Notes: a model not told the origin generated them from the sequence alone. 51,515 nt of DNA from Acidimicrobiales bacterium (GCA_050742375.1 JBOGHY010000036.1:1-51515), one strand, 5' to 3'; numbered from the stretch's first letter, positions 16,601 through 44,260 are shown. Numbers and translations: made by a program.

Positions 16601-16638
16601 CGCTCAACGGCTCATGGCGAGGCGGGACGCGCTCCGGA

Positions 16639-21013: not shown

Positions 21014-21014
21014 G

Positions 21015-21368: not shown

Positions 21369-21417
21369 CAGTAAAAAGTGTACTTCCCGCGACGATCCGA
21401 GCGCCCCCGCGTCAGTG

Positions 21418-21445
21418 TTGCGGCCTGTGGGTGAGGCTGTATCAT
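21418..21445 (+). promoter_or_regulatory. Candidate promoter upstream of gmaS (TTGCGG-16 nt-TATCAT)
   Basis: Read directly. It lies ~80 nt upstream of ATG 21525. Confidence 0.3.
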
Positions 21446-21524
21446 GGGAGCAGTCGAAGTTTCCTACTGAGAAACTCGGCTACCCTGCCACGCTCGCCCA
21501 CCGGCTCGGAAGGGGAAAGGCAAG

Positions 21525-22919: not shown

Positions 22920-22959
22920 GGCGTCCCCGACGGCGGCGCCGGGACAGGAGGAGGGCCAC

Positions 22960-24671: not shown

Positions 24672-24676
24672 GAGGA

Positions 24677-26101: not shown

Positions 26102-26543
26102 TACCTCGTCGCCGCCAGCCGCTCCGACCCGGCACGTGACCCTCGATGCCGAGGAGCTCGCCGGCAGGTCGTACCCCTACCAGCACGACATCTCCCTCGT
26201 GGAGGACATCGACCTCGAGGCCATGACGCCGGGGGTAGGCATCAACTGGCTGGAGGACGTCCATCTTCTCTCCGAGGAGGGCACTCCGGCCGTCTTCGAC
26301 CGGTACTCGAACTCGTTCCTCAAGATCTATTTCCCAATAGCCCCAGGGCGCGAGGACGAGATCGCCCGCAAGGTGCTCGTCCGCCACCTGAGCGCCGGCA
26401 ATTCCTACGGCATCACCTTGAAGCGCCGCCATGCCAAGTTCCCCCAGCCGTTGCTCGGGCCGTGGGTCGAAGGCTCGGAGACCGTCGGCGGAGCCTGGGA
26501 GCCGCCGACACTCGATGGGTGGGAGGCACCCGCCGGGCACTAA
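26094..26543 (+). CDS. Hypothetical protein (~149 aa) between mgsC and the FAD oxidoreductase gene
   Basis: GTG 26094 overlaps the mgsC stop by 8 nt. I recognise no family. The composition is protein-like rather than Arg/Pro-biased like the spurious frames. Confidence 0.5.
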   Translation: MSDTSSPPAAPTRHVTLDAEELAGRSYPYQHDISLVEDIDLEAMTPGVGINWLEDVHLLSEEGTPAVFDRYSNSFLKIYFPIAPGREDEIARKVLVRHLSAGNSYGITLKRRHAKFPQPLLGPWVEGSETVGGAWEPPTLDGWEAPAGH

Positions 26544-26583
26544 GAAATACCTATTGGGCACCGACAAAAAAGGAACGTGCACC

Positions 26584-27933: not shown

Positions 27934-27979
27934 GCGCTCCCCCACCCCCCAGGTACCCGCCCCGGCAGAGGAGTAAGAG

Positions 27980-29107
27980 ATGCCGCTTCTTCAGACCGCC
28001 TTCCATGCTCGCACGGCGGCCCTCGGCGCCCGCTTCGACGAGTACGCCGGCTACGAGCTCCCCTACGGCTTCTCCGCCGACGTCCTCGACGAGTACTGGG
28101 CCTGCCGCCAGCGCGCCGTCGTGATGGACTTGACGCCGCTGCGAAAGGTCGAGGTGACCGGCCCGGGCGCCTTCGCGCTGCTGCAGTTCGCCGCCACACG
28201 CGACCTGCGCCGCCTTGGCGACGGAGACGTCGTCTACAGCGCGCTGTGCGACGACGAGGGACGGCTGCTCGACGACGGCACCATCTTCCGCTTCGGCCCG
28301 GAGAGGTTCCGCTGGGTCGGCTACACCGACGACGACGAGGCGCTGCTGGCCGAGAGGGCGGAGCGCCTCGGGGTCAGAGTCGACCTCGAGGCGTCGACGC
28401 ACCGTCTGCACAACGTCGCCGTCCAGGGCCCGGCGAGCCGCGAGATCGTCTCGGCAGCGGTCTCGATGTCAGGCAGCCGACCGGTGAGCGAGCTCAGGTG
28501 GTTCAGCTTCACCACCGGATCGGTGGGCGGAGCCGACGACGTGCTCGTCTCGCGCACGGGCTACTCCGGAGAGCTCGGCTACGAGCTGTGGTGCCGTCCC
28601 GAGGACGGTCCGGCGCTGTGGGACGCGCTCTTAAAAGAAGGCGCCGCAAAGGGTCTCTGCCCCTTCGGGCTCGACGCCCTCGACATCATCCGCATCGAGG
28701 CCGGCCTCATCTTCAAGGGTTACGAGTACGAGGGGTCAGAGGACCCCTTCGAGGCCGGCATCGGGTTCACGGTGGCGGCGGCCAAGCCCGACGACTTCGC
28801 CGGGAGCTCAGCCCTGGCGTCGCGTCGCGAGCATCCGACGCAGAGGCTCGTCGGTCTCGAGGTCGAAGGCTCAGAGCCGGCGGCGCACGGTGACGAGATC
28901 TTCGCCGGGGACGAGCGGGCGGGCGTGGTGACGAGCGGTGCCTTCTCACCGATGCTGGACAAGAACCTCGCCCTCGCCCGCGTGGCGGCGGACCGCTCCG
29001 CCCAGGGCGAGCGCCTCGACGTGCGCCGGTCAGGCGGTGGCTCGGCCGCGGCAAGAGTCGTGCGGTTCCCCTTCTACGACCCGGAAAAGACCCGGCCCCG
29101 CTCGTGA
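27980..29107 (+). CDS. Aminomethyltransferase (GcvT) family folate-binding protein
   Basis: ATG follows gaggag. GcvT motifs VSRTGYSGELGYELW and GLDALDIIRIEAGL. Confidence 0.85.
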   Translation: MPLLQTAFHARTAALGARFDEYAGYELPYGFSADVLDEYWACRQRAVVMDLTPLRKVEVTGPGAFALLQFAATRDLRRLGDGDVVYSALCDDEGRLLDDGTIFRFGPERFRWVGYTDDDEALLAERAERLGVRVDLEASTHRLHNVAVQGPASREIVSAAVSMSGSRPVSELRWFSFTTGSVGGADDVLVSRTGYSGELGYELWCRPEDGPALWDALLKEGAAKGLCPFGLDALDIIRIEAGLIFKGYEYEGSEDPFEAGIGFTVAAAKPDDFAGSSALASRREHPTQRLVGLEVEGSEPAAHGDEIFAGDERAGVVTSGAFSPMLDKNLALARVAADRSAQGERLDVRRSGGGSAAARVVRFPFYDPEKTRPRS

Positions 29108-29388
29108 ACGACGCTCCTCGCGCCCCGGTCGTACGGGGCACCCTGGCACAAGTGGGGGTCGGATCGGGGCGCCTTTTGTGGCGCTTCCCCGGGGTGGGGT
29201 TCACCGTGGTCGCCTACGTCGCCACCGCCGACGGCCTTTTGGGCACCAGCTACGAGCGCCTCTGGGGCGTGCTGGCCGCCGTGGTCGCAGGCGCGGGGTG
29301 GTACCTGTCTCCGCTCGGACGCCTCGAGGCGGCTCGCCGGAGGAAGGGTCCGCCCGAGCCAGGGCGACCTGGCGCGAGAGTTTCGTGA
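29104..29388 (+). CDS. Possible small membrane protein (hypothetical)
   Basis: The GTG overlaps the gcvT-like stop (GTGA). Two hydrophobic stretches are present. No homology recognised. Confidence 0.3.
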   Translation: MNDAPRAPVVRGTLAQVGVGSGRLLWRFPGVGFTVVAYVATADGLLGTSYERLWGVLAAVVAGAGWYLSPLGRLEAARRRKGPPEPGRPGARVS

Positions 29389-29398
29389 CGAGAGGCCC

Positions 29399-29416
29399 CG
29401 CAGTCCTCTGACTGCG
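29399..29416 (+). terminator. Weak stem-loop CGCAGTC-CTCT-GACTGCG followed by TAGCTTTCT
   Basis: A 7-bp stem lies 11 nt after the stop at 29388. It may be a boundary or attenuator between the NMG module and ubiX. Confidence 0.2.
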
Positions 29417-29429
29417 TAGCTTTCTGGCC

Positions 29430-30023
29430 GTGGCGACGAGCGAGCCCCCGCCGCGGCGCCTCGTCGTCGGGGTGACCGGAGCGAGCGGGACGATCCTCGC
29501 CCGCTCTGTGCTGTCGCTCCTCGGCGCCGCCGGGGTGGAGCGCCACCTCGTCGTGAGCGCCGCCGCCAAGCGCACCGCCGGTGTCGAGTGGCCCGAAGGG
29601 CACCTCGAGTCGATGGCAGAGGTGGTGTATCCCTGGCGGGACATCGGCGCCCCGATCGCCTCCGGGTCGTTCGCCACCGACGGCATGATCGTCGTGCCGT
29701 GCAGCGTCCGGACGATGTCGAGTGTCGCCTTCGGCATCACCGACTCGCTCATCGCCCGGGCCGCCGACGTGACGCTGAAGGAGCGCCGTCGCCTCGTCCT
29801 CAGCCTGCGTGAGTCGCCGCTTCACCTCGGGCACCTGCGTGCGATGCTGGCGGTCACCGAGGCCGGCGCCATCGTGGCGCCGCCGCTGCCGCTCTTTTAC
29901 GAAAGCCCCGCCTCGATCGACGAGCTCGTCGACCAGATGGCCGGGCGCCTCGTAGGCCTGCTCGGCGTCGAGAGCAAGGCCGTGCGGCCCTGGAGCGGCG
30001 TCCGGGCGCGGCCGTCGCCGTGA
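29430..30023 (+). CDS. ubiX: UbiX-family flavin prenyltransferase
   Basis: RLVVGVTGASG...DGMIVVPCSVRTMSSVAFGITDSLIARAADVTLKERRRLVL. Confidence 0.9.
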   Translation: MATSEPPPRRLVVGVTGASGTILARSVLSLLGAAGVERHLVVSAAAKRTAGVEWPEGHLESMAEVVYPWRDIGAPIASGSFATDGMIVVPCSVRTMSSVAFGITDSLIARAADVTLKERRRLVLSLRESPLHLGHLRAMLAVTEAGAIVAPPLPLFYESPASIDELVDQMAGRLVGLLGVESKAVRPWSGVRARPSP

Positions 30024-31438
30024 GGCCCGCCTTGGACGCACCAAAGGACCGCCAGTCGGTGCGCAGCGCCCTCGCCGACCTGGCGCGGACGGGTGACCTG
30101 CTCGCGATCGAGGACGAGGTCGACCCGGTCCACGAGCTCGGCGCCTACCTCTTCGAGGCCGACGGGAGCGCCGACGGCGGGCCGGCGCTCCTTTTCGAGC
30201 GGGTCCGGGGCCACGACCATGCGGTCTTCGGCAACCTGTTGAACTCGCGCGAGCGGATCTCCCGCCTGCTCGGCGTCGAGACCTGGGCACTTCACGAGGT
30301 GCTTGCCTCCGCCCCCGACCGGGCGCTTTCCTCCGAGGCCGTGAACGGCGGGGCCTGCCAGGAGGTGGTAGTGGCCGACCCGGACCTGCGGCGACTCCCG
30401 GTCCCGGAGTTCTTCACGGACGAGACCGGCCGCTACATCACGGCGGGCGTCATCGTGGCAAAGGGAGTGACGGGCCGGCGGAACGCCTCCTTCGCCCGCT
30501 TGAAGATCCTCGACTCCAAGCGGGCATTCGTCGGGATCGCCCCCGAGCACCACCTCGCCGTGCTCGCCCGCGAGGCCGCCTCGCGAGGCCGCAGTCTTGA
30601 CGTGGCGATCACGCTCGGGAACCACCCCGCCGTGCTCCTCGCCGGCGCCTACTACCTGGAGCTCGGCGAGGACGAGCTCGAGACCGCCGGGGCCCTGTTG
30701 GGTGAGGCGCTTCAGGTGGTCGCCTGCCAGACCGTCGACGTCGAGGTGCCGGCGCAGGCAGAGATCGTGATCGAGGCCACCCTCGACGCGGGAACGAGCG
30801 TCGAGGAAGGACCGGTATCGGAGTTCTCCGGCCTCTACGAGCGCTACGGCCCCGGCCCCGTCGTAGATGTGCGACGGGTCACCATGCGATCGGGTGCTCT
30901 GTTCCAGACGATCCTTCCCGGCTATGCCAAAGAGCACGTGCTCATCGGCGCCGTCGCCATCGCCGCGGTGCTCGAGCGCCGGCTCCGCCGGGTGGTTCCC
31001 GGCGTCACCGAGGTGGCGGTCACGCCGGGGGGCTGTGGGCGGCTTCACGCCGTCGTCGGCCTCTCGCAGCCCGGCGACGGAGCCGCCGAAGCCGCCATCG
31101 GCGAAGGGCTCGGCGCCGTCAGGCTCTTGAAGCGGATCGTCGTCGTGGACGACGACATCGACGTGCACGACCCGGTGCAGGTCGAGTGGGCGATGGCGAC
31201 GAGGATGAAGGCCGACCGCGACATCTCGGTGCTCGCGGGGAGATCCTCGTCCCGCTCCGACCCGCTCGCCTCAGGTGGCGTGGTGGCCAAGCTCGGGATC
31301 AACGCCACCCGGCGCGCGGGCGACCGGGCGGACTGGCGTCGTGCCGTGCCGCCGGAGGAGATGCGAAGGCGCGCCCGCGAGGCTCTCTCGCTCGGGACCG
31401 AGAGGCTCGGGCCAACCGGGCGCTCCCCAGCGCGTTGA
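30020..31438 (+). CDS. UbiD-family (prFMN-dependent) decarboxylase
   Basis: The GTG overlaps the ubiX stop (GTGA). Contains the UbiD core EGPVSEFSGLYERYG...V..VTMR. Confidence 0.9.
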   Translation: MRPALDAPKDRQSVRSALADLARTGDLLAIEDEVDPVHELGAYLFEADGSADGGPALLFERVRGHDHAVFGNLLNSRERISRLLGVETWALHEVLASAPDRALSSEAVNGGACQEVVVADPDLRRLPVPEFFTDETGRYITAGVIVAKGVTGRRNASFARLKILDSKRAFVGIAPEHHLAVLAREAASRGRSLDVAITLGNHPAVLLAGAYYLELGEDELETAGALLGEALQVVACQTVDVEVPAQAEIVIEATLDAGTSVEEGPVSEFSGLYERYGPGPVVDVRRVTMRSGALFQTILPGYAKEHVLIGAVAIAAVLERRLRRVVPGVTEVAVTPGGCGRLHAVVGLSQPGDGAAEAAIGEGLGAVRLLKRIVVVDDDIDVHDPVQVEWAMATRMKADRDISVLAGRSSSRSDPLASGGVVAKLGINATRRAGDRADWRRAVPPEEMRRRAREALSLGTERLGPTGRSPAR

Positions 31439-31530
31439 GACGGCGCCGGACGGGGCCGATGCCGGCTTCTGTACTGTCCCCACATGCGCCAAAGAGCTGT
31501 CTCGCGTGGAACCTCTGAGGGGACCGAACG

Positions 31531-32907
31531 ATGCCGCTGATGGATCTCTCGCTCACCGGCCGGGTGGTGAGCGGCACGGGCGAGCCGGCGCGGGGCGAGA
31601 TCCTCGTCTCGGGCGGCACCATCGCAGAGGTGCACCTGCTGTCACGAGGCGAACGGCCGGCTGGCGCGACAAGGGCGATCGACGTCGGGGATGCGTACCT
31701 CATCCCGGGTGCCATCGACTGTCACGTGCACTCGGGGAGCCACCCCGGCGAGGGGATCCTGGCACTCACGACCTCGGCGGCCGCCGGCGGGGTGACGACA
31801 GCCCTCGACATGCCCTACGACGCCGAGGCTCCGGTCGTGGACCCGGGCGTCTTCGCCGCCAAGCAGGATCAGATCGCACGCGAGGCGCTCGTCGACGTCG
31901 CGCTCCTCGGCACGGTCCGCCCGGGCACCGGAGCCGACGACGTGGAGCCGCTGGTGCGGGCGGGAGCCGTCGGCTTCAAGCTGTCGCTCTTTTGCACAGA
32001 CGCCCGGCGCTTCCCTCGGATCCACGACTGCCAGTTCCTAGAGGTGCTCCGAGCCATCCGTGCGGCGGGCAGCGTCGCCTGCGTGCACGCCGAGAACGAG
32101 GAGATCATCAAGCCTCTCATCGAGCGCGCCCGCCTCGAAGGTCAGAGCGCGCCGATCGAGCACTGCCGCTCCCGCCCCCCGGTAAGCGAGACCCAGGCGG
32201 TGCTCACGGCCCTCGAATACGCGCGGGAGACCGGGGCACGCCTTCACCTCTGCCACCTGAGCCTTTCTCGCTCGGTAGACCTCGCCATGACATACGCCGC
32301 AGAGGGCACGCAGGTGAGCGCCGAGACGTGCCCGCACTATCTGACGTTCTCGGAGGCCGATATGGCCCGGGAGGCCGGGAGGCTCAAGATCAACCCTCCG
32401 CTCAGGGCCACCGGCGAGGTCGAGGCGCTGTGGGAGCGCGTCATGTCTGGAGCCGTCGACGTCGTGGCGTCCGACCACGCCCCCTGGCCGCTCGACTACA
32501 AGCTGCACCCGAACATCTTCGACAACCACTCGGGGGCGCCGGGCGTCGAGACACTTGTCTCGGTGGTTGCCTCGGGCCTGTTCGCCCACGGCGGCAGCGT
32601 GAACGACCTCGCACGCCTCGTCTCGAGCGCACCGGCCCGGCTCTTCGGGCTCTCCGGGCGAAAGGGCTCGATCGAGGCGGGAAAAGACGCCGACGTCGTG
32701 GCGCTCGACCCGGCTAGCTTCACCGTCAACGAGCACAAGCTGCACTCGAACGCCGGTTGGAGCCCTTATGACAAGATGACCTTCAACGGCCGCGCCATGC
32801 TCACGGTCTCGAGGGGCGAGGTCGTGTGGGACGGCGAACAGGTGCATGGCACGCCCGGCCGGGGACGCCTCGTCGTCCCGGAGCGCAAAGGAGGCGCCGA
32901 TGAGTGA
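31531..32907 (+). CDS. Cyclic amidohydrolase (allantoinase/dihydroorotase/hydantoinase family), candidate hydantoin-5-propionate amidohydrolase
   Basis: All binuclear-metal ligands are present in context: DCHVH, GFKLSLF (carboxylated-Lys position), VHAE, HLCHLS, ASDHAP. ATG follows GAGGGGA. Confidence 0.85.
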   Translation: MPLMDLSLTGRVVSGTGEPARGEILVSGGTIAEVHLLSRGERPAGATRAIDVGDAYLIPGAIDCHVHSGSHPGEGILALTTSAAAGGVTTALDMPYDAEAPVVDPGVFAAKQDQIAREALVDVALLGTVRPGTGADDVEPLVRAGAVGFKLSLFCTDARRFPRIHDCQFLEVLRAIRAAGSVACVHAENEEIIKPLIERARLEGQSAPIEHCRSRPPVSETQAVLTALEYARETGARLHLCHLSLSRSVDLAMTYAAEGTQVSAETCPHYLTFSEADMAREAGRLKINPPLRATGEVEALWERVMSGAVDVVASDHAPWPLDYKLHPNIFDNHSGAPGVETLVSVVASGLFAHGGSVNDLARLVSSAPARLFGLSGRKGSIEAGKDADVVALDPASFTVNEHKLHSNAGWSPYDKMTFNGRAMLTVSRGEVVWDGEQVHGTPGRGRLVVPERKGGADE

Positions 32908-34540
32908 CCCTGCTGTGCCCAGGGCGGCACGCGGCGCCACGCTGCGGTGCAGGGGCTGGCGGCAGGAGGGCCTGCTCCGCATGCTCGAGAACGTTGTCGA
33001 GATCGGCGAGCGTCCAGAGGACCTCGTCGTCTACGGCGCCCGCGGCAAGGCCGCTCGGGACTGGCCGTCGTTCCACTCGCTCGTCCAGTCGCTCTGCCAC
33101 CTCGGCGAGGACGAGACGCTCGTAGTCCAGTCGGGTAAGCCCATCGGCGTCTTCCCGAGCCCGCCCGAGGCGCCGCTCGTGCTCATGGCATGCGGCAACA
33201 TCGTCGGGCACTACGCGACCCCCGAGCACTTCGACGAGCTCTCGGACAAGGGTCTAATCATGTGGGGCGGGCTCACCGCCGGGGACTGGCAGTACATCGG
33301 CTTCCAGGGCGTCCTGCAAGGGGTCTACGAGCTTTTGCAAGCCGTCGCGAGAGAGCACTTCGACGGCTTGCTCCGCGGGCGCCTCGTCGTCAGCGCCGGG
33401 CTCGGCGGCATGGGGGCGGCCCAACCTCTCGCCATCACGATGTCGGGCGCGCGGGGCATCGTCGTCGAGGTGGACGAGGCCAAGTGCGAACGGGCGCTGC
33501 GGCGGGGACACGTCGACGCCGTCCTCGAGAACCTCGACGCCGCCCTCAACTTCCCGGCCGGAGACTCCCAAAGGGGGGTCGTCGCCCTCCATGCCAACGC
33601 CGCCGGCGTCTACCGGGAGCTGGCGGAGCGCCACGTCGTTCCCGACGTCGTCACCGACCTCACGGCCGCCCACGACGCCGTCTTCGGTTACTGCCCCCTC
33701 GCCCTGTCGGTCTCGAGCTGGCACGAGCGCCGCGAGAGCGAGCCGGCCAAGGTCGCGGCGCTCGCACGGGAGTCGATGGCGGTCCAAGTGGAGGCGATGC
33801 TGGCCCTCAAAGCAGGGGGTGCGGTCGTCTTCGAGAACGGCAACAACCTGCGCGTCCAGGCACACGCCGCCGGCGTCGAGACGGCCTTCGAGATCGACGG
33901 CTTCGCCGACCGCTACATAAGGCCGCTCTTCTGCCGCGGCATCGGCCCGTTCAGATGGGTCGCCCTAAGCGGCGAGGCGAGCGATCTCCTTCAGCTCGAC
34001 GCCCTTGTTAGAAGTACCGCCGCCCGTAGCGAGGTACGCAGATGGATCGACCTCGCCGGCCGTTACGTCGAGGTTCAGGGCCTGCCGGCGAGAAGCTGCT
34101 GGCTCGGCCACGGCGAGCGCTCCGCCTTTGCCGCCGCCGTCAACGAGCTCGTCGCCGACGACAGCCTCGCCGGGCCGGTGCTCTTCACCCGCGACCACTT
34201 CGACGCCGGCGGCATGACCCATCCCCACATCGGCACCGAGGCGATGGCAGACGGCAGCGGCGCCATCTCGGACTGGCCCATCCTCGACGCCCTACTCCTA
34301 TCGGCTTCGGGGGCCGACCTCGTGGCCGTCCACGCCGGAGGCGCCGGCTACGCCGGCTACATGCAGAGCGCCGGCGTGACCGTCGTCGCCGATGGATCCG
34401 AAAGCGCCTCGAAGCGCCTCAGACGCTGCCTTGACGCCGACACAGGGCTCGGTGTCCTGCGCTACGCCGACGCCGGCTACGACGACGCCAGAGCTCTGGC
34501 CGCGAGCTCCCGGCTCGGCCTCGGGGGACAGGACAGATGA
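32900..34540 (+). CDS. Urocanate hydratase family protein, candidate thiourocanate/urocanate hydratase
   Basis: ATG 32900 follows aaaggagg and overlaps the upstream stop by 8 nt. Urocanase motifs RCRGWRQEGLLRML, VVQSGKPIGVF, GLGGMGAAQPLA. Confidence 0.9.
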   Translation: MSDPAVPRAARGATLRCRGWRQEGLLRMLENVVEIGERPEDLVVYGARGKAARDWPSFHSLVQSLCHLGEDETLVVQSGKPIGVFPSPPEAPLVLMACGNIVGHYATPEHFDELSDKGLIMWGGLTAGDWQYIGFQGVLQGVYELLQAVAREHFDGLLRGRLVVSAGLGGMGAAQPLAITMSGARGIVVEVDEAKCERALRRGHVDAVLENLDAALNFPAGDSQRGVVALHANAAGVYRELAERHVVPDVVTDLTAAHDAVFGYCPLALSVSSWHERRESEPAKVAALARESMAVQVEAMLALKAGGAVVFENGNNLRVQAHAAGVETAFEIDGFADRYIRPLFCRGIGPFRWVALSGEASDLLQLDALVRSTAARSEVRRWIDLAGRYVEVQGLPARSCWLGHGERSAFAAAVNELVADDSLAGPVLFTRDHFDAGGMTHPHIGTEAMADGSGAISDWPILDALLLSASGADLVAVHAGGAGYAGYMQSAGVTVVADGSESASKRLRRCLDADTGLGVLRYADAGYDDARALAASSRLGLGGQDR

Positions 34541-35622
34541 GGGAGCTCAGCCACGAGGACGCCCTCGACGCCGTCTTTGGAGGCTCGATCCTCGCCTGCG
34601 GCGGCGGAGGCTGGGTCGAGCACGGGATGATGATGGGTGAGCTGGCGACCCGAATCGGCCACCCGAGCCTTTGCTCGGTCGACGAGCTCGATCCCGGCGC
34701 CCTCGTCGTCACCGTGACCGCGATCGGGGCGCCAGCCTCGCCCAACTGGGAGATCCGCCCGCTCGACTACGTCCGCGCCCTGCAGCTCGTCGCCGCCGAG
34801 CTCGACCGGCCGGTGGCGGCGGTCATGACGGCGCAGAACGGCTCCTCCACCACCCTGAACGGCTGGATCCAGTCGGCTGTCCTCGGCGTGAAGGTGCTCG
34901 ACGCCGCCGGCGACGTACGGGCGCACCCGACGGGCAAGCTCGGCGGGCTCGGCCTCACCGACCGTGAGGGTTACGAGACGGTGCAGGCCGTGGCGGGAGG
35001 CAACCGGGCGCTGTGCGGGGGCGTCGAGATCGTGGCACGGGGACAGGTCGTCACGACGTCGGACGTGCTGAGAGACGTGTGCGTGCGCGCCGGCGGCTTC
35101 ATCGCCGCCGCACGCAATCCGATCGACCTCGCCTACGTCAAGGAGAACGCCGCCATAGGCGCCGTAAGCTACGCCCTCTCACTCGGCTCGGCGCTGCGGC
35201 AGGCGACGTCAGATGCCGAGTCGGTCATGGCGGCTGCGAGCGCGGTGACGGGCGGCAGGGTCGTGGCGAGCGGCGCCGCCGCCGTGGTGGAGCCGCTGCG
35301 GACAGAAGGCGGCTTCGACCACGGAGCGCTTGGCGTGGGCGACTGCGTCCTGCACTACCTGAACGAGTACATGACGGTCGATCGCGGCGCCGAGAGGATC
35401 GCCACCTATCCCGACGTCATCGCCACCCTGTCGCTCGAGACCGGCCGGCCCGTATCGATCGCGCAGATGAGCGAGGGCAGGGAGGTGGCGATCTTCATCG
35501 TCGACCGTTCGATGCTGCCTCTCTCTTCGAGCACGAGGGACCGCTTCGCCCTCGAAGAGGTGGAGAAGATCATGGGCGTGAATCTCCTCGGGGACGAGCG
35601 CGGCGGGAGGGGTGGTTCGTGA
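34537..35622 (+). CDS. DUF917 / S-methyl-thiohydantoin-desulfurase-like protein
   Basis: ATGA overlap with the upstream gene. It has the DUF917 pattern ILACGGGGW...VTAIGAPAS...AQNGSSTT...VLDAAGDVRAHPT. The family assignment is from memory of the motif pattern. Confidence 0.75.
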   Translation: MRELSHEDALDAVFGGSILACGGGGWVEHGMMMGELATRIGHPSLCSVDELDPGALVVTVTAIGAPASPNWEIRPLDYVRALQLVAAELDRPVAAVMTAQNGSSTTLNGWIQSAVLGVKVLDAAGDVRAHPTGKLGGLGLTDREGYETVQAVAGGNRALCGGVEIVARGQVVTTSDVLRDVCVRAGGFIAAARNPIDLAYVKENAAIGAVSYALSLGSALRQATSDAESVMAAASAVTGGRVVASGAAAVVEPLRTEGGFDHGALGVGDCVLHYLNEYMTVDRGAERIATYPDVIATLSLETGRPVSIAQMSEGREVAIFIVDRSMLPLSSSTRDRFALEEVEKIMGVNLLGDERGGRGGS

Positions 35623-36872
35623 GCGCGGGGCTTTCGTCGCCCGACCTCGGGCGGATCGAGGAGGACCTGAAGGCACTGGCGACGTTCCGCGAGGCAAGCG
35701 CCCCCGGATGGACGCGCCCGGTTTTCTCGGCCGTCGACCGGGATGCCCGCCTGTGGGTAGCCGAGCAGATGCGAGCCGCCGGCATGGAGGTGAGCTCCGA
35801 TGCGGCGGCCAACCTCGTCGGCAGGCTGCGCGGCAGCGGAGCGCCCGGTGCAGTAGTGACGGGGTCGCACACCGATACCGTGCCCGGCGGCGGCCGTTTC
35901 GACGGCGTCATCGGAGTCCTCGGCGCCATCGAGGCCGTCCGTTGCCTGCGCGCAACCGGGATGCAGCTCGAGCACGACCTCGTCGTCATCGACTTCCTCG
36001 GCGAAGAGCCGAACGACTTCGGCCTCAGCTGCGTCGGAAGCAGGGCGATCGCCGGCACCCTCTCAAGAGAGCACCTCGCCCTTCTCGGGCCGAAAGAGCA
36101 CAGCCTCGCCCACGAGCTCGAGACGACGGGCGGCGATCCCGACGCCATAGCCGGCGTGGCGTGGCCGCTCGGATCGGTCCACTGCTTCGTCGAGCTCCAC
36201 ATCGAGCAGGGTCCCCGTCTCGAGCTGGCCGGCGTGCCGATCGGCGTCGTGACGGGGATCGCCGGCATCCACCGGCTCGTCGCGAGCTTCTCGGGGCGAC
36301 CCGACCATGCGGGGACGACGCCGATGGAGGCGCGCCGCGACGCCCTTCTCGGCGCCGCCGAGGCGTCGCTTTTGATCGAGAAGCTCGCCGAGGGCTCGGT
36401 CGCCACGGCGGGCCGCCTCGACGTGCACCCAGGCGCCAATAACGTCGTGCCCGCCGAAGCAGAGCTCTGGGCGGAGGCCCGGAGCGCCGACGAGTCATGG
36501 CTGGAGGAATTCGGCCGTCAGCTCGAAGCCGGCATGTCCGGCATCGGCGAGCGCCGCCGGCTCGGCGCGTCGCTTCGATGGCCGTCGCGCGAAGCCCCAG
36601 TGCTCGTGACCGACTGGGTCGCGGACGCCCTCGTAGACACGGCGGGGCACTTTGGCGTCGAGGCCCTCCGTATCCCCAGCGGTGCCGGGCACGATGCCGC
36701 CCAGATGGCGAACCTGGGCCCGATGGGCATGATCTTCGTACCTTCCAGGGACGGCCGCAGCCACTGCCCCGAGGAGTGGACCGACCTCGAGCAGATCGGT
36801 CAGGGGGTGGCGGTTCTCGCCGAAGCACTGCGGCAGCTCGACGCAACACCTCCGGGCGGGAGGGCGGGGTGA
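35619..36872 (+). CDS. M20-family Zn hydrolase (N-carbamoyl-L-amino-acid / allantoate amidohydrolase type)
   Basis: GTGA overlap with the upstream gene. Contains GSHTDTVPGGGRFDGVIGVLGAIEA and a C-terminal PSGAGHDA. Confidence 0.85.
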   Translation: MSAGLSSPDLGRIEEDLKALATFREASAPGWTRPVFSAVDRDARLWVAEQMRAAGMEVSSDAAANLVGRLRGSGAPGAVVTGSHTDTVPGGGRFDGVIGVLGAIEAVRCLRATGMQLEHDLVVIDFLGEEPNDFGLSCVGSRAIAGTLSREHLALLGPKEHSLAHELETTGGDPDAIAGVAWPLGSVHCFVELHIEQGPRLELAGVPIGVVTGIAGIHRLVASFSGRPDHAGTTPMEARRDALLGAAEASLLIEKLAEGSVATAGRLDVHPGANNVVPAEAELWAEARSADESWLEEFGRQLEAGMSGIGERRRLGASLRWPSREAPVLVTDWVADALVDTAGHFGVEALRIPSGAGHDAAQMANLGPMGMIFVPSRDGRSHCPEEWTDLEQIGQGVAVLAEALRQLDATPPGGRAG

Positions 36873-36896
36873 GCAAAGCGGGGGTGACGGGGCTGA

Positions 36897-38858
36897 ATGG
36901 CCGCACCTAAGCGCACCATCGACGACATCCTGAGCGAAGCACGGGCCGGGTTGCGCCGGCTCTCTCCGCAGGAGACCGCCGCCGCCGTGCAACGCGGCGC
37001 CCTGCTCGTCGACATCCGTCCGGCCGCGCAGCGAGGCCTCGAGGGGGAGATCCCCGGGGCGCTCGTCATCGAGCGCAACCAGCTCGAGTGGCGCTTGGAC
37101 CCCCAGAGCGACTCCCGCATACCCGCCGCGATAGATCACGACATCGAGGTCGTCGTCTTCTGCTCCGAGGGATACACCTCGAGTCTTGCCGCATCGAGCC
37201 TGCAGGAGCTCGGACTTCACCGCGCCACGGACATCGACGGTGGCTTCCACGCCTGGAGGAGAGCCGGCCTGCCCGTCACCGCGGGTGAGCTCGAGTGGCC
37301 GGAGCCCGCCGGCCGCCCGGACGGAGCGGGCCGCCGCGACGACCCCGTCCTGACGCTCGACCCCGGGAGAGCGCTCGACATCGAGGGCGTCCGGCAAGTG
37401 GTGGACGGGAGGCCTGTGGACCTCTCGTCTGCGGCACGTGAGCGCGTGCGGGCGGCAAGGGAGATCATCGATGAGACCGTTGCCTCGGGCGCCGCCGTTT
37501 ACGGCTTGACCGCCGGGCTGGGACATGCCCGCGACCAACGCCTCTCGGCCGCAAGCCTCGCCGAGTACCAGGTCGGCATCATCCTGAGCCATGCGGGCGG
37601 GGTCGGGCCACCCCTGCCCACGGCCGCCGTCCGTGCCGCCATGCTGGCACGCCTCAACAGTGCGACCCGTGGTGGCGGCGCCCTGACGGAGCGGTCGGTC
37701 GAGATGCTCGTCCGGTTCCTCAACGCGGGCGTCCACCCCGTCGTTCCTGAGATCGGCTCGGTCGGAGCATCCGACCTCATGCACCTCGCCGCGGTCGCCC
37801 TGGTGGCGATCGGCCTTGGAGAGGCCGAGTACAGGGGAAACGTCCTCACCGGTGGGGACGCGCTCGCCGCCGCCGGCCTCGGGGCCCTTCAACTTGAGGC
37901 CGGAGAAGGACTTGCCCTCGTCTCGGCCAATTCCTTCTCGATCGGTATGGGCTGCCTCGTCGCGGCAAGGGCCCGGCAGCTCGTGGAGGAGGCGGACGTG
38001 GTGGCCGCGTTGTCGCTCGAGGCAGTGGAGGGGAATCTTTCGGTGATCGAACCGGCTGTCGGTGTCGCCAAGCCTGTGCCTGGCCAGATCGCAACCATCC
38101 GCCACCTCCGCTCGCTCCTGGCGGGCAGCCCGCTCTTCGAGCCGGGGAGGGCCTCGTCGCTGCAGGATGCCTTGTCGTTTCGGGTCATCCCGCAGGTTCA
38201 CGGGGCCGCCCGTGAGCTCGTCGACGCCCTGAAAAGTGCCGTCGAGCTTGAGCTCAACGCGATGGACGACAACCCCCTCGTGTGGATTCCCGAGCGACGA
38301 CTGATCTCCAACGGGAACTTCCATCCGATGGCGATGGCCCTTTACTTCGACGCTCTCCGCCCCGCGCTCGCCCATCTCGGCTTGTGCTCCATTCGCCGCA
38401 TGAACCACCTCGGCAACGCCGTCTTCGGTGAGCCGGAAGGATTCGAGGAGATGATGACCGTCAACGCCGAGCAGTACGGGCGTGTGGCTTCGCTCTATGC
38501 CGGGGCGGCGCTCTGGGCAGAGCTCCGGCAGCTTGCCGGCCCGGCGACACTCGACATCGAGTCACTCGACTTCGAGCAGGAAGACCACGCCACGGCTTCT
38601 TTCTTGACGGTCGCTACCACAGAGCGCACCCTCGGGCTGCTCGAGCGAATCCTCGCCATCGAGCTCGGCTACGCCTCTTTCGTGTTCGACCGTCGTTCCG
38701 GCGAAGAGGGCCTCGGGGCAGGCACCGGCGCTGCTCTCGAGCGCGTTCGCTCGGCTGTCGCGGGCGCCGGCTCCGCAGCCCGGTGTAACGACGCCCTCAC
38801 CGAGCTTCTCCGAACCGGCGAGCTTCTCCGGACGGTGGGGCCTGCCAGCACACGGTGA
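36897..38858 (+). CDS. Rhodanese domain fused to an aromatic-amino-acid-lyase-family domain lacking the MIO triad, candidate ergothionase-like betaine lyase
   Basis: Residues 1-130 form a rhodanese domain with active-site loop VVFCSEGYTSS (Cys codon at 37161-37163). Residues ~150-653 are HAL/PAL-like (AVYGLTAGLGH). The MIO position reads GSVGAS-DLMHLA (37755-37778). Confidence 0.85.
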   Translation: MAAPKRTIDDILSEARAGLRRLSPQETAAAVQRGALLVDIRPAAQRGLEGEIPGALVIERNQLEWRLDPQSDSRIPAAIDHDIEVVVFCSEGYTSSLAASSLQELGLHRATDIDGGFHAWRRAGLPVTAGELEWPEPAGRPDGAGRRDDPVLTLDPGRALDIEGVRQVVDGRPVDLSSAARERVRAAREIIDETVASGAAVYGLTAGLGHARDQRLSAASLAEYQVGIILSHAGGVGPPLPTAAVRAAMLARLNSATRGGGALTERSVEMLVRFLNAGVHPVVPEIGSVGASDLMHLAAVALVAIGLGEAEYRGNVLTGGDALAAAGLGALQLEAGEGLALVSANSFSIGMGCLVAARARQLVEEADVVAALSLEAVEGNLSVIEPAVGVAKPVPGQIATIRHLRSLLAGSPLFEPGRASSLQDALSFRVIPQVHGAARELVDALKSAVELELNAMDDNPLVWIPERRLISNGNFHPMAMALYFDALRPALAHLGLCSIRRMNHLGNAVFGEPEGFEEMMTVNAEQYGRVASLYAGAALWAELRQLAGPATLDIESLDFEQEDHATASFLTVATTERTLGLLERILAIELGYASFVFDRRSGEEGLGAGTGAALERVRSAVAGAGSAARCNDALTELLRTGELLRTVGPASTR

Positions 38859-38934
38859 GCCCGGGGTGCTCGTCGGTGGTCATGTCCTAAGGACCGCCCC
38901 CCAAAGGCCCATGGCGATCGCCCTACCGGCGTCG

Positions 38935-40410
38935 TCAGCGCGCGAAGAGCGAGCCCCCGCGACCTAGTGTCATCTCGCCGAACGCCCCTGCGAGCGCACC
39001 TACCGAGTCGCCAAGATCTTGATCAGACGTGCGGCCAGGTGGAGGCACTAGCTCGCGAACGACTGACACGAGGGGCTGCAATCGAGGCGGAGCTTGCCTC
39101 TCCGTCACGAACAGCGCCTGGCTGGAGGTGGCGGCCAGCGAGGCGAGGCAGGCGTCGAGGCACCAAGCCGCCCGGCCCTCCTTTGAGTAGGCGAAGAAGG
39201 TCGGTGAGGCGACATCGTTCTGGCCGGTGAAGCCGCCGCTCTCGCTTGCAGGAAGAAACGTGCGCGCCGCCTCGTGTCGAGCCTGCTCGCTGAAGCCGAT
39301 CTGCATCATCGCGAGGCCGGCCGTCGCTCCCCGGTCGTCTTCTGAGGTGCTCAGGTGGTGTGGGAGGAGGGAGACGCTGCCGTCGTGGAGCTTCATGGTG
39401 TGGCGCTCGGCAAGGCCGCACAGGTCGGCCCAAGATGCCGAGACTCCGTCTATCGCAGGGTAGGCGCTTGCGTTGTGATAGCCACCGGTCGAGAAGGCGC
39501 GTCCGTTCGGATGCTCACTGTCGGCGGGGACGTAGACGGGGTTGTCGGTGACTGATGAGATCGCGATCTCGGCGACCTCCTCGAGGGTCGCGACCGCACG
39601 GTGCGCCTGTCCGAGCACCCGCGGCAGGATCCGGTAGCTCACCGGTGCCTGGAAGGGCCGCCGACCCTCCCGGGGGGCTTCTTCAAGCCATGACGCCAGG
39701 GCGTCCAGGGCCATGCCCTCGTACCGATCACGCCAGAGGTCCTTGAGCACCGGGTCGTAGGGCTCGAGCGGTGCCCTGAACGCCTCGATGGACAGAGCAA
39801 AGACCTGCTCGGCCAGGTCGAGGCGACGACCCGCTCTGAGGGCGGTGTCGGCGGCAAGGGCCGCAGAGCACGGGGATCCGTTGACGAGCGCCATTGGCTC
39901 CCCCTCCTCGAGCTCGAGGTCGTGATGGCGAAAGGTGCTCATCACATGCGCAAGCGGGATGATCTCTCCCGCCCCTACCTCGCCTGCTACCGGCACCTTC
40001 GCCAGCGGACGCTCGAGCATCTCGGCGATCCGCTCTGCCACCACCGGACGCGACTTGGCATTTCCCTCCACGTAGTTCGCGAGCCTGGCGAAGATGATCC
40101 CCCGCACCACGGTGTCGGGGAGGCGCTCCTCCCCAAAGCTTGTCCCCCGGCGACTCCTGCGGGACCAGGCGACCGCGTAGCCGCGCTGTTCCTCTGGGGC
40201 GATCGGGCGCTTCGCTCCCTCCCCGGCGCCTGTGGTCGTCCCGTAAATGAAAGCGGTCCTGTCGCTGTCGAGAAACGCCATGAACGACCGGCGAGACTCA
40301 TCCATCGCTCGGATGGCGCCGGGTCCGATCTCCACGCTCTCGCCGTCGATCGAGACGCGCCTGTAGTTCTCCAGGGTGAAGTCTTGCCGGGACTGGACGA
40401 CGACGGTCAT
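38935..40410 (-). CDS. Aromatic-amino-acid-lyase-family protein lacking the MIO triad (paralogue 2)
   Basis: ATG follows AAGGAGG. Contains FIYGTTTGAGE. The MIO position reads GEVGA-GEIIPLAH (39946-39984). Confidence 0.8.
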   Translation of the reverse strand: MTVVVQSRQDFTLENYRRVSIDGESVEIGPGAIRAMDESRRSFMAFLDSDRTAFIYGTTTGAGEGAKRPIAPEEQRGYAVAWSRRSRRGTSFGEERLPDTVVRGIIFARLANYVEGNAKSRPVVAERIAEMLERPLAKVPVAGEVGAGEIIPLAHVMSTFRHHDLELEEGEPMALVNGSPCSAALAADTALRAGRRLDLAEQVFALSIEAFRAPLEPYDPVLKDLWRDRYEGMALDALASWLEEAPREGRRPFQAPVSYRILPRVLGQAHRAVATLEEVAEIAISSVTDNPVYVPADSEHPNGRAFSTGGYHNASAYPAIDGVSASWADLCGLAERHTMKLHDGSVSLLPHHLSTSEDDRGATAGLAMMQIGFSEQARHEAARTFLPASESGGFTGQNDVASPTFFAYSKEGRAAWCLDACLASLAATSSQALFVTERQAPPRLQPLVSVVRELVPPPGRTSDQDLGDSVGALAGAFGEMTLGRGGSLFAR

Positions 40411-40490
40411 TAATGCCTCCTTGCCTACGAGCTAGCCTATGTTGGCAGGTCGGCTCGCACCTCGCCCTGGGTCTACTACCGTTTCGTGGG

Positions 40491-40640
40491 TCAACGAGCC
40501 CAAGGTAGTGACGGTGCGATACCAGCTCTATCCAGCACGATCATCGTGATGAAGCTCTCGGGGTCATCGAACCCGCGGGCGGCCGAGACGAGCCGGGCGA
40601 TGGCGGCGTTGTTGGACTCGGAGAGCGCGTTCGTCGGGGA
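40491..40640 (-). pseudogene. Degraded C-terminal remnant of an ISL3-like transposase
   Basis: The translation SPTNALSESNNAAIARLVSAARGFDDPESFITMIVLDRAGI follows the ISL3 C-terminal pattern (SN..LEG.N.KI.LI.R.A.GF.....FIAMI.L). No upstream transposase body is present. The family assignment is tentative. Confidence 0.4.
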
Positions 40641-40677
40641 TGGATCCCGCTGCGCCCGGGCTAGGTTCTGACCGCGA

Positions 40678-42321
40678 ATGCGCGAGCGCTCGGTCGAGCT
40701 CACCGGGGAGGACCTCACCGTCGACGACGTGGTCGCCGTCGCACGGGACCGTTCGAAGGTGACCATCTCACCCGAGGCGATCCGCCGGGTCCGCCTCGCG
40801 AGGCAAGTGGTCGAGACCGTCTATTCGAGCGGCGAGGCGGTCTACGGACTGAACACGGGTCTCGGCTCGTTCGCCCGCTACAGGATGACCCCGGACCAGG
40901 TCCGGGAGTTCTCCTTCGCGACGATGGCCGACCAGCTCGCCTCCTACGGCCGCCCCCTCTCGATCGAGGTGGTACGGGCGATGATGGTGGCGAGGGCGAA
41001 CGGCATGGCCAAGGCGGGGGTAGGAGTCCGCTTGGAGCTCCTCCAGCTCTTGGTCGAGCTCTTGAACCGCCAGGTTCATCCGGTAGTCCGCGAGGTCGGC
41101 TCCGTCGGCCAGGGCGACCTCTCGGAGATGTCGGACATCGGAAAGGTGATGATCGGTATCGGCCGGGCCGAGGTGGGCGGCCAGATCCTGGATGGGAGAG
41201 AGGCTCTCGCCCGGGTCGGCCTCGAACCCATCGACCTCGCACCGAAAGAGGCGCTCGCTCTCATAAGCGCCAACGGGGTCACGCTCGGCTGGGGCTCGCT
41301 CGTCCTCTACGACGTGGCCGACCTGCTCGACTGGCTCCAGGTCGCGGCGGCACTCTCACTCGAGGGCTTCGCCGGGAACCTTTCGATAATCCACCCGGGC
41401 GCCGCCCGCTTCCAGCCTCACATCGGCGCCAACGCCGCGGCCGACCGCCTCCGCAGCCTCCTCGAGGGCTCCTACCTCTGGGAGCCCGGCTCGGCTCGCA
41501 ACCTCCAGGATCCGCTCTCGTTCCGCTGTGTGCCGCGCACCCATGGCGCCCTTTACGACACGCTCGCCTACGCCAGGGCGACACTCGAGGCGGAGCTCAA
41601 TTCCGCCAGCGACAACCCTCTCGTCCTCGTCGACGAGAACGTCATCATCTCCGTCGGTTACTTCGACATCGCCACGGTCGCGATGGCCTTCGACCTCGTG
41701 CGCATAGCCATCGCGAATGCCCTCAAGGTCGCGAACGAACGCGTGCAGAAGCTTCTCTGGAACCACTTCAGCGGCCTCCCGAGCGAGCTGTCGCTCAAGA
41801 AGGGAACTGCGAACGGGCTGAAGCCGATGGGGCGCTGGTGCGCCGCCATCACGGCCGAGGCCCGGTCGCTTGCGAACCCGGTCACGCTCGACTACGTGGG
41901 CCAAGTGGCCGAGGGCGTGGAGGATCACGCGAGCATGGCGCCGCTCGCGGTGAAGCGTGCCTACGAGCTCGTCTCCGTCGCGCACAGGGCCGTCGCTTAC
42001 GAGCTCGTCATCGCCTCTCAGGCAGTGGACCTAAGAGGTCGTCGCCCACTCGGACGGGGCACCATGCTCGCCTTCGAGACGGTGCGCGAGCACGTCCCGA
42101 AGCTGGAGGAAGTGACGACCTGGGATGCCGATGTCGAGGCCGTGGTCGAGACGGTCGCGAGCGGCTATCTCGGAGCACAGGTCGCCACGGTCGTTGGCGG
42201 TCGCCGTGACCTCTCTGATCACGAGGGCCCCGGCTCTCTGTCGAAAGCCGCCATCGAGGAACTGGAACAGGCGAGCTCCGAGGAGCCCTACGGCACCATC
42301 GACACAGGCGGAGGCAGGTGA
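40678..42321 (+). CDS. Aromatic-amino-acid-lyase-family protein lacking the MIO triad (paralogue 3)
   Basis: HAL-like N-terminus LTGEDLTVDDVVAVA... and AVYGLNTGLGSF. The MIO position reads GSVGQ-GDLSEMS (41098-41121). Confidence 0.85.
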   Translation: MRERSVELTGEDLTVDDVVAVARDRSKVTISPEAIRRVRLARQVVETVYSSGEAVYGLNTGLGSFARYRMTPDQVREFSFATMADQLASYGRPLSIEVVRAMMVARANGMAKAGVGVRLELLQLLVELLNRQVHPVVREVGSVGQGDLSEMSDIGKVMIGIGRAEVGGQILDGREALARVGLEPIDLAPKEALALISANGVTLGWGSLVLYDVADLLDWLQVAAALSLEGFAGNLSIIHPGAARFQPHIGANAAADRLRSLLEGSYLWEPGSARNLQDPLSFRCVPRTHGALYDTLAYARATLEAELNSASDNPLVLVDENVIISVGYFDIATVAMAFDLVRIAIANALKVANERVQKLLWNHFSGLPSELSLKKGTANGLKPMGRWCAAITAEARSLANPVTLDYVGQVAEGVEDHASMAPLAVKRAYELVSVAHRAVAYELVIASQAVDLRGRRPLGRGTMLAFETVREHVPKLEEVTTWDADVEAVVETVASGYLGAQVATVVGGRRDLSDHEGPGSLSKAAIEELEQASSEEPYGTIDTGGGR

Positions 42322-42389
42322 CAGCTGAGGCAGCCGGCCGGCGCGACTACGGTGCCACCGGCGACGACGTCCGGACGGCTGGCTCTCGC

Positions 42390-44114: not shown

Positions 44115-44260
44115 GACGCCCTTCCTTCCTGCTCTCCCGAGAAAGTCCTCGGGTGGCTCTGTCACACGATCGAAACAAACGCGTAGCAGTTCGTACCATA
44201 ACCGCCCCCGCCCCGCCATGCCAGGGGTTGGGTCCACTGTTGCTCGACCGGCAACGGCTC

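Follow-up and report, generated by a model that had tools for sequence, protein, structure and literature searches.

Results

Gene content and organization of the locus

The stretch analyzed, referred to here as the window, is a whole contig of 51,515 bp from a metagenome-assembled genome (MAG) of an uncultured peat/soil actinobacterium (Acidimicrobiales), and all positions are counted within it. An earlier reading of this DNA, the original prediction, had taken five consecutive plus-strand genes at 31531-38858 for a complete ergothioneine degradation operon. The present analysis indicates that the first four of these genes, together with a lyase gene lying two genes outside this region, probably constitute an Acidimicrobiales form of that pathway. 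The five genes are as follows.

31531-32907, plus strand: gene 1, ErtD-like hydantoin-5-propionate amidohydrolase, 458 amino acids (best NCBIfam match ErtD; metal ligands)
32900-34540, plus strand: gene 2, urocanase homologue of the thiourocanate hydratase (TUH) clade, 546 amino acids (NF058530, 7NED, neighbor-joining tree)
34537-35622, plus strand: gene 3, DUF917 / thiohydantoin-desulfurase-like protein, 361 amino acids (NF058529; Pfam S-Me-THD_N, S-Me-THD_C)
35619-36872, plus strand: gene 4, ErtE-like N-carbamoyl-L-glutamate amidohydrolase, M20 family, 417 amino acids (NF058540)
36897-38858, plus strand: gene 5, rhodanese domain (about residues 1-130) fused to a lyase of the histidine ammonia-lyase (HAL) fold lacking the 4-methylideneimidazol-5-one (MIO) group (about residues 155-653), a candidate trimethylamine-releasing lyase (Pfam Rhodanese and Lyase_aromatic)

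As read from the sequence, genes 1 and 2 overlap by ATGAGTGA at 32900-32907, with AAAGGAGG immediately upstream, genes 2 and 3 by ATGA (34537-34540), and genes 3 and 4 by GTGA (35619-35622); the stop codon of gene 4 (36870-36872) and the ATG of gene 5 (36897) are separated by a 24-nt spacer. The predicted series of five plus-strand genes was thus borne out, with stop/start overlaps at three junctions and a gap at the fourth. GC content at third codon positions (GC3) was of the coding type in all five open reading frames (ORFs), at 0.82-0.89. Pfam agreed with the fold that had been named for each protein, finding Amidohydro_1; Urocanase_N, Urocanase, and Urocanase_C; S-Me-THD_N and S-Me-THD_C (DUF917); Peptidase_M20; and Lyase_aromatic, respectively, and family E-values ranged from 1e-116 to 1e-216. 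A scan of 29000-42500 for sigma-70 promoters found nothing, and terminator-like matches, all of which were intragenic, were given no weight at 70% GC.

Genes 1-4 match ergothioneine-utilization families best

Strict family membership was judged against NCBIfam equivalog cut-offs, using models NF058529, NF058530, NF058538, NF058539, and NF058540. For each of genes 1-4 the top NCBIfam model was an ergothioneine-utilization family, matched over nearly the full length. Gene 2 scored 720 bits with the TUH model (cut-off 930), 671 with that for S-methyl TUH, and 636 with hutU, and its best solved structure was 7NED (624 bits), with ordinary urocanases and 8Q9U at about 530. The 7NED and 8Q9U sequences used for scanning were rebuilt from printed alignments; 7NED passes the TUH cut-off (1007 against 930) and 8Q9U the S-methyl one (970 against 880). 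Gene 2 and 7NED share a 2-residue deletion in the N-terminal region that ordinary urocanases do not have, as well as the motifs WGGLTA..WQYIG (WGGLTAGDWQYIG in the window, YGQMTAGSWIYIG in ordinary urocanases), MTHPxIxTE (MTHPHIGTE against VASPNRETE), and GGxGYAGYMxSAGVT (GGAGYAGYMQSAGVT against GGGVGMGYSxHAGMV).

In a neighbor-joining tree, gene 2 and three Acidimicrobiales orthologues joined 7NED with 100% bootstrap support, the S-methyl TUH being sister to this group and HutU the outgroup. The window protein and these orthologues are 52-56% identical to 7NED (52% for the window protein itself) and 45-49% to HutU. Because the tree places gene 2 with 7NED at this level of support, the gene is not nested within HutU, an outcome that had been named beforehand as speaking against the prediction; the urocanase homologue is set apart from HutU as claimed, on a thin sampling of reference sequences. 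By hidden Markov model (HMM) score, motifs, and tree, the gene 2 product groups with the thiourocanate hydratase 7NED, apart from HutU.

The same comparisons bear on the idea that the cassette degrades S-methyl-ergothioneine by way of an S-methyl TUH and an S-methyl thiohydantoin desulfurase, with release of methanethiol. The S-methyl families are indeed the second-best NCBIfam matches (671 bits for gene 2 and 268 for gene 3), and the Pfam name of the DUF917 domains is S-Me-THD. However, the thiol models outscore the S-methyl ones for both proteins (720 against 671 and 390 against 268 bits), and the S-methyl cut-offs are missed (NF058531, 671 against 880; NF058532, 268 against 450). At HAGGAGYAGYMQSAG the window protein reads as 7NED does, where 8Q9U has a 4-residue deletion and reads HSNGDKS, and in the tree 8Q9U falls outside the clade of the window protein and 7NED. 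We regard S-methyl-ergothioneine as a very unlikely substrate.

The remaining three proteins were compared in the same way. For gene 1, NCBIfam scores (NF058538/NF058539) were 425 bits for ErtD (cut-off 600), 418 for ErtD type 2 (cut-off 650), and 331 for allantoinase. Alignment to allantoinase 3hm7 and L-hydantoinase 1gkr showed all six metal ligands intact (HxH, carboxylated Lys, His, His, and Asp), as the original prediction had stated. The gene 3 product scored 390 bits with the thiohydantoin desulfurase model NF058529 (cut-off 440), its residues 2-351 covering model positions 1-358 of 362, and the S-methyl desulfurase model scored 122 bits lower (268); a search of solved structures with this DUF917 protein gave no match at E <= 1e-5. 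Gene 4 scored 506 bits with the ErtE model NF058540, 14 below the cut-off of 520, and the next model, allantoate amidohydrolase, scored 124 bits lower (382).

Read instead as a canonical Hut operon, or as a generic hydantoin, allantoin, or pyrimidine cluster, the genes find some support in that gene 2 passes the hutU model (636 against a cut-off of 375) and that the amidohydrolase and the M20 protein also match allantoinase and allantoate amidohydrolase models; DUF917 genes, moreover, often neighbor hydantoinases. Against this, the Ert models lead the allantoin models by about 95-125 bits, the hutU score of gene 2 lies below those of bona fide TUH and S-methyl TUH on the same model, synteny with an MIO-less lyase is conserved, and there is no lyase with MIO. 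When candidate ORFs from all over the contig were scanned with Pfam or NCBIfam, no HutI, HutG, or HutF was found (imidazolonepropionase, formiminoglutamase, N-formylglutamate amidohydrolase, formiminoglutamate deiminase). With these enzymes missing from the scanned ORFs and Ala-Ser-Gly missing from all three lyases at the locus, the prediction that this is not a Hut operon stands, and a Hut or generic hydantoin function seems barely conceivable.

Three MIO-less lyases and the probable ergothionase

Three MIO-less HAL-fold genes lie consecutively in 36897-42321, namely the fusion gene (plus strand), ly2 (minus strand), and ly3 (plus strand); the latter two are as follows.

38935-40410, minus strand: ly2, very divergent MIO-less HAL-fold protein, 491 amino acids (Lyase_aromatic, 183 bits; convergent with the fusion gene)
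40678-42321, plus strand: ly3, MIO-less HAL-fold lyase, conserved cassette partner, 547 amino acids (6s7j; Arg386; synteny)

The catalytic Tyr is kept in all three. In place of the MIO loop, the fusion reads GSVGAS-DL, one residue shorter and without the Gly of Ala-Ser-Gly, in keeping with the HAL-family lyase without an MIO triad that had been predicted here; ly2 reads GEVGAG-EI, with the conserved Glu replaced by Asn, and ly3 reads GSVGQG-DL, compared with SSIGEG-DI in the ergothionase of Treponema denticola. That enzyme (6s7j) is the best solved structure for both ly3 (249 bits) and the fusion (208 bits; HAL, 189), whose lyase domains are 39% identical to each other. NCBIfam holds no ergothionase model, and the T. 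denticola enzyme itself matches only hutH-type models (340 bits), so the lyases are not classifiable by HMM.

In T. denticola ergothionase, Lys384 binds the thiolate and is essential, and lyases with Asn or Gln at this position take hercynine-type substrates, not ergothioneine (bioRxiv 10.64898/2026.04.22.720169, 10.1101/2025.08.13.670108). A gapless alignment to 6s7j places Arg386 of ly3 opposite this Lys, which preserves a positive charge at the site; all 10 orthologues aligned (KPMGRW) have the Arg, as do all members of a 22-sequence alignment, and ly3 keeps the Tyr base and Glu412. Across the fusion, ly2, and ly3, the equivalents of Lys384 are Tyr, unaligned, and Arg, and those of the imidazole-binding His are His, unaligned, and Gln. 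Since the paralogues differ at both substrate-discriminating positions, three different betaine substrates are suggested.

Species-representative genomes were searched with the DUF917 protein, which yielded 10 Acidimicrobiales or Actinomycetes MAG loci, and the window proteins were then compared with all loci by tblastn. At least 10 other loci share the order ErtD-TUH-ErtC-ErtE. It extends to an operon ErtD-TUH-ErtC-ErtE-ly3 in nine of the 10 (L012-L015, L017-L021), where a few tens of nucleotides separate the ErtE match from the start of the ly3 match; the contig of the tenth locus is too short for a decision. L022 and L023 have more distant relatives of ly3 (64% identity) next to the cassette, here in divergent orientation and accompanied by an IclR regulator; L022 lacks the M20 gene. 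In all, the cassette has a ly3-type lyase as its neighbor in at least 11 loci, some of them co-directional and others divergent. The cassette matches in two of the loci, L012 (6976-12298; ErtD and ErtE split) and L021 (8350-12295; TUH, ErtC, and ErtE split), run in several frames, reflecting either assembly frameshifts or pseudogenization.

Taken together, this synteny and the Arg at the thiolate position make ly3 the most likely ergothionase of the lineage. The usual first enzyme of the pathway is thus probably the lyase encoded at 40678-42321, outside the region 31531-38858 for which the pathway had been reported. The claim that the five reported genes are themselves the ergothioneine five-enzyme set therefore held in part: genes 1-4 have the corresponding families as their best NCBIfam models, although below the cut-offs, and gene 5 is not the conserved ergothionase partner, a place taken by ly3 in nine of 10 loci. 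Arg-type lyases wired to the thiourocanate cassette in peat/soil Acidimicrobiales and relatives appear to make up at least 120 protein clusters (62-77% identity) whose sole annotation is "histidine ammonia-lyase".

A competing possibility is that the rhodanese-fused lyase (36897-38858) is the ergothionase and that the five reported genes are the complete pathway. The fusion gene follows ErtE by 24 nt on the same strand; an orthologue lies directly upstream of ErtD in L019, and another shares a locus with the cassette in L010/L011. The fusion lacks MIO, conserves the Tyr base, His, Gln, Arg, Asn, and Glu of histidine-type lyases, and has ergothionase as its best structure. The residue aligned with Lys384 depends on the aligner: one pairwise alignment (BLASTP against ly3) sets a conserved Arg of the fusion opposite the ly3 Arg, followed by a 5-residue insertion, phmmer gives Ser, and MAFFT and hhalign both place an invariant Tyr at the Lys384/Arg386 position. 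We lean toward a fusion enzyme that probably has no cationic residue there, and characterized lyases without this Lys are reported not to use ergothioneine (bioRxiv 10.64898/2026.04.22.720169, 10.1101/2025.08.13.670108).

Gene neighborhood also argues against the fusion as the pathway enzyme. The position after ErtE is occupied by ly3 in nine of 10 cassette loci, and apart from the window, the fusion occurs together with the cassette only in L019, where it is upstream of ErtD, and in L010/L011, where it is on the opposite strand. No cassette accompanies it in L002, where it occurs with trimethylamine dehydrogenase (TMADH) paralogues, CDO_I, DUF427, and ly2, in L006/L007, where it stands beside methylamine genes, or in L008/L009, where in L008 it stands beside a BHMT-like methyltransferase gene. 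In L001 it occurs with UbiX-UbiD, ly2, and ErtD- and ErtE-like genes only, with no hydratase or desulfurase, and unfused relatives in L003 and L005 stand alone, also without the cassette. That the fusion serves as the ergothionase of a five-gene pathway is accordingly possible, though on balance unlikely, and ly3 remains the preferred candidate.

The rhodanese-lyase fusion and its module

The fusion is preceded directly by a UbiX-UbiD pair in L001 (7925-9932) and L010 (1538-3602); in the window the corresponding pair precedes the cassette.

29430-30023, plus strand: UbiX flavin prenyltransferase (Pfam, NCBIfam)
30020-31438, plus strand: UbiD-family decarboxylase, 92 nt upstream of ErtD (Pfam, NCBIfam)

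This UbiD is closest to 6h6v/6h6x (268 bits) and AnInD, with Fdc1 at about 85; 6h6v/6h6x (HmfF-type) and AnInD are, we assume, heteroaromatic-carboxylate decarboxylases. The ly2 and fusion genes are close to each other in the window, L001, L002, L010/L011, and L019, ly2 being convergent with the fusion gene in every case and directly downstream of it only in the window. In L015 (14132-16449), which has no rhodanese-lyase, ly3 is followed by a tandem pair of ly2-like genes in the same orientation, and this ties ly2 to the ergothioneine cassette independently of the fusion. The fusion mostly occurs without the cassette and belongs to a second, mobile UbiX-UbiD-fusion module, which has ly2 close by and in this contig is located within the transcription unit. 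In the window, the fusion-ly2 pair occupies the usual post-ErtE place of ly3, and the ancestral UbiX-UbiD-fusion unit brackets the cassette. GC3 is lower for the fusion gene (0.82) and ly2 (0.80) than for the others (0.87-0.89), which is compatible with a separate history.

The "extra domains" hinted at in the original prediction correspond to the N-terminal rhodanese domain of gene 5, which Pfam places at residues 23-122, with an active-site loop CSEGYTS containing Cys89. Such fusions are rare, at about 11 protein clusters. Orthologues are 67-80% identical in the rhodanese domain and 57-75% in the lyase domain, and the Cys loop is kept in all six fused homologues aligned. The rhodanese of gene 5 is also 70-83% identical to a standalone rhodanese that is very common in Actinomycetota.

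Several observations concern the surroundings of these proteins. The standalone rhodanese gene of Cellulomonas sp. H30R-01 (L027, 5465-6432) overlaps a gene for a CDO_I thiol dioxygenase, and on Acidimicrobiales-like contigs the standalone rhodanese adjoins DUF427 proteins, an amidohydrolase, and a HAL-fold gene. A CDO_I gene also lies two genes upstream of the rhodanese-lyase in L002 (8479-12001). P0102 (788 amino acids), a lyase relative of the unfused clade, carries a C-terminal S-adenosylmethionine (SAM)-methyltransferase domain and no N-terminal rhodanese; L003 has a separate methyltransferase gene two genes downstream of the lyase.

The rhodanese context points to sulfur handling tied to the lyase. 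Judged from its sequence, the fusion may be a second ergothionase or an enzyme for a related betaine, and its substrate may be ergothioneine, hercynine, or an oxidized or modified derivative. Literature searches found no description of a rhodanese-ergothionase fusion or of an ergothioneine dioxygenase. A more far-reaching proposal, which we offer as a long shot, is that the rhodanese-lyase represents a second, undescribed route of thiohistidine-betaine breakdown in Actinomycetota. The rhodanese Cys would remove or handle the C2 sulfur (as a persulfide, or as sulfite or thiosulfate after oxidation), and the HAL-like (Tyr) lyase domain would eliminate trimethylamine from the desulfurized or modified betaine. 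Recurrent partners in such a route would be UbiX/UbiD, ly2, DUF427, the BHMT-like methyltransferase, and sometimes a CDO-type thiol dioxygenase, and its main purpose, if it exists, would be the harvest of trimethylamine and sulfur.

The true substrate of the locus could also be another C2-substituted histidine betaine (selenoneine, ergothioneine sulfinate or sulfonate, or a mixed disulfide), with the three lyases dividing the derivatives and the rhodanese handling sulfur or selenium species. Consistent with this are the three adjoining MIO-less paralogues, which differ in their residues equivalent to Lys384 and to the His, the conserved rhodanese Cys loop, the CDO_I gene near the fusion in L002, and the translational coupling of the closest standalone rhodanese to CDO_I in Cellulomonas; a bacterial ergothioneine-sulfonate pathway has also been published, to judge from a title among the references of PMC13405746. 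The TUH and desulfurase matches, by contrast, point to the plain thione, and the idea is speculation from context that we hold to be distinctly improbable.

Neighboring candidate genes for trimethylamine use and transport

Further genes on the contig could act on trimethylamine or in uptake of the substrate.

11956-14361, plus strand: TMADH homologue, 801 amino acids (1djn)
14438-18362, minus strand: Fe-S/CCG oxidoreductase and electron-transfer flavoprotein (ETF) alpha and beta (Pfam)
18923-29107, plus strand: APC permease, glutamine-synthetase-like protein, GATase/GXGXG/Glu_synthase trio, DAO-family oxidase, and GCV_T aminomethyltransferase (Pfam)
42390-44237, minus strand: SBP_bac_5 solute-binding protein, candidate uptake component (Pfam)
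46277-47269, minus strand: DUF427 (PF04248) protein (Pfam)
inside ORF 47077-50169, minus strand: fused Opp-type ATP-binding cassette (ABC) ATPase (Pfam; boundaries by analogy with L014)
inside ORF 49218-50618, and 50144-51097, minus strand: two permeases (Pfam; boundaries by analogy with L014)

The TMADH homologue matched the Methylophilus enzyme 1djn over its full length with 888 bits, compared with 531 for histamine dehydrogenase. An alternative assignment of this 801-amino acid old yellow enzyme (OYE)/Fe-S protein, as an enoate reductase acting on the lyase product, was rejected in view of the full-length TMADH match. The adjacent genes encode ETF, the physiological electron acceptor of TMADH. 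The set at 18923-29107 is interpreted, from gene content, as a methylamine utilization system of the N-methylglutamate type. Its permease (18923-20434) matched the trimethylamine N-oxide (TMAO) permease of Methylocella with 210 bits, and its GCV_T protein (27980-29107) matched the C-terminal half of TMAO demethylase with 468 bits; because of these resemblances, TMAO is possibly used as well. The TMADH, ETF, and methylamine genes fit a neighboring pathway that releases trimethylamine. Of the two paralogues of TMADH type in L002 (89% and 52% identity), one could be a dimethylamine dehydrogenase.

The solute-binding protein, two permeases, and fused double ATPase make up an ABC transporter of the Opp/Dpp/Nik type, which is a candidate ergothioneine or betaine importer. 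Transporter genes of this kind are recurrent neighbors of the cassette: L002, L003, and L019 have orthologues of the solute-binding protein next to the cassette or to lyases, and L014 (2682-6651) and L023 have SBP_bac_5 or Opp-type ABC genes. The transporter is unlike EgtU, which belongs to a glycine-betaine-type system.

Two further families recur around these genes. DUF427 proteins (about 260-650 amino acids) are found with rhodanese or rhodanese-lyase, ly2, and amidohydrolase genes in the window, L001, L002, L010/L011, and L024-L026. A gene of the BHMT-like homocysteine S-methyltransferase family (PF02574; window 10777-11847, minus strand) lies beside TMADH and/or the rhodanese-lyase in five loci (the window, L001, L002, L008, and L010); its product might demethylate a betaine or methylate a thiol.

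Discussion

We consider it likely that the locus is an Acidimicrobiales version of the published five-step aerobic pathway of ergothioneine catabolism, with every step assigned from sequence and gene neighborhood. The Opp-type (SBP_bac_5) ABC transporter would import the substrate, and an MIO-less HAL-fold lyase, most likely ly3 (40678-42321) and possibly also the rhodanese-fused paralogue, would remove trimethylamine to give thiourocanate. The TUH homologue (32900-34540) would turn thiourocanate into thiohydantoin-5-propionate, from which the DUF917 desulfurase homologue (34537-35622) would free sulfide, leaving hydantoin-5-propionate. Ring opening would fall to the ErtD-like amidohydrolase (31531-32907), and the ErtE-like M20 enzyme (35619-36872) would then yield L-glutamate, ammonia, and CO2. 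The released trimethylamine would be oxidized and assimilated by the TMADH, the ETF, and the N-methylglutamate-type set on the same contig.

A number of points weigh against this proposal. Genes 1-4 all score under their equivalog cut-offs (425/600, 720/930, 390/440, and 506/520), so their strict family membership is not established, and the tree of gene 2 has few references (two HutU, one TUH, and one S-methyl TUH). The ly3 protein is barely closer to ergothionase than to HAL (249 against 237 bits), and the imidazole-binding His of both enzymes is replaced in it by Gln, Leu, or Met. The thiourocanate and thiohydantoin steps would equally serve analogues, for example selenoneine or 2-thiohistidine-derived acids, and the scheme does not account for the rhodanese domain, UbiD/UbiX, ly2, or DUF427. 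Finally, the view is that of a single MAG contig, with any Hut genes elsewhere in the genome lying beyond it.

The antioxidant ergothioneine is produced by fungi and actinobacteria, and soils contain it in abundance. To our knowledge, the pathway has been published for Proteobacteria and Firmicutes. Definitive identification of ergothionase is limited to a few organisms, according to a 2026 review (PMC13405746). An Arg-type lyase clade would widen the known sinks for ergothioneine, and current NCBIfam cut-offs miss the whole lineage. Linkage to TMADH and methylamine genes suggests full use of the nitrogen rather than excretion of trimethylamine. The rhodanese-lyase fusion is a candidate for new sulfur handling, and the SBP_bac_5 transporter a candidate new ergothioneine importer.

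The five-step pathway, comprising ergothionase, TUH, thiohydantoin desulfurase, ErtD, and ErtE, has reportedly been found in Burkholderia sp. HME13 and Paenibacillus. The window has the same five enzyme folds and differs from that pathway in several respects: scores are below the equivalog cut-offs, with 52-56% identity to 7NED; the host, Acidimicrobiales, is of a different phylum; the gene order is D-hydratase-desulfurase-E-lyase; the conserved lyase has Arg for Lys384 and no imidazole-binding His; and there are two extra MIO-less paralogues, one of them rhodanese-fused, together with linkage to TMADH and methylamine genes. As for the lyases, the T. denticola enzyme 6s7j and the Shewanella proteins SO_3057, SO_3299, and Swoo_3913 resemble those of the window in having an MIO-less HAL fold with a short loop, a Tyr base, carboxylate-binding Gln/Arg/Asn, and Glu. 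The relationship is only distant, with ergothionase and HAL scoring 208 and 189 bits for the fusion and 249 and 237 for ly3, and at the Lys384 position ly3 has Arg and the fusion Tyr, whereas hercynine-type lyases have Asn or Gln. Shewanella trimethylammonia-lyase systems are periplasmic and respiratory, in contrast to the catabolic cluster seen here, which lacks flavocytochrome genes, and a rhodanese domain, present in the window fusion, is described in none of the characterized trimethylammonia-lyases.

The canonical Hut pathway shares homologous first two enzymes and glutamate as end product with the proposed scheme. It differs in that the window lacks MIO, has a hydratase of the TUH clade, and carries desulfurase and hydantoinase/carbamoylase-type steps instead of HutI and HutG/HutF. 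The S-methyl-ergothioneine pathway (8Q9U, S-Me-THD) uses the same folds, but its models give lower scores with the window proteins, motifs in the active-site region differ, and 8Q9U is an outgroup. As in the bagremycin trio BagA/BagM/BagN (NF041222, NF041218, NF041219), a HAL-fold lyase is found near UbiX/UbiD; the window scores are, however, far under the Bag cut-offs, and its UbiD is closer to 6h6v/6h6x and AnInD than to the acrylic-acid decarboxylase Fdc1.

Set against these systems, the proposed chemistry is already known, and NCBI models exist for four of its steps. What is new is an Acidimicrobiales lineage in which every cassette protein falls under the cut-offs, an abundant Arg-type lyase clade annotated as HAL, the D-hydratase-desulfurase-E-lyase order, three MIO-less paralogues including the rare rhodanese fusion, the UbiX/UbiD linkage, and the co-location with TMADH and methylamine genes. 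The original description of the operon as a new variant of the pathway is apt for the fusion and the architecture of the locus, and not for the chemistry, which is that of the published five steps.

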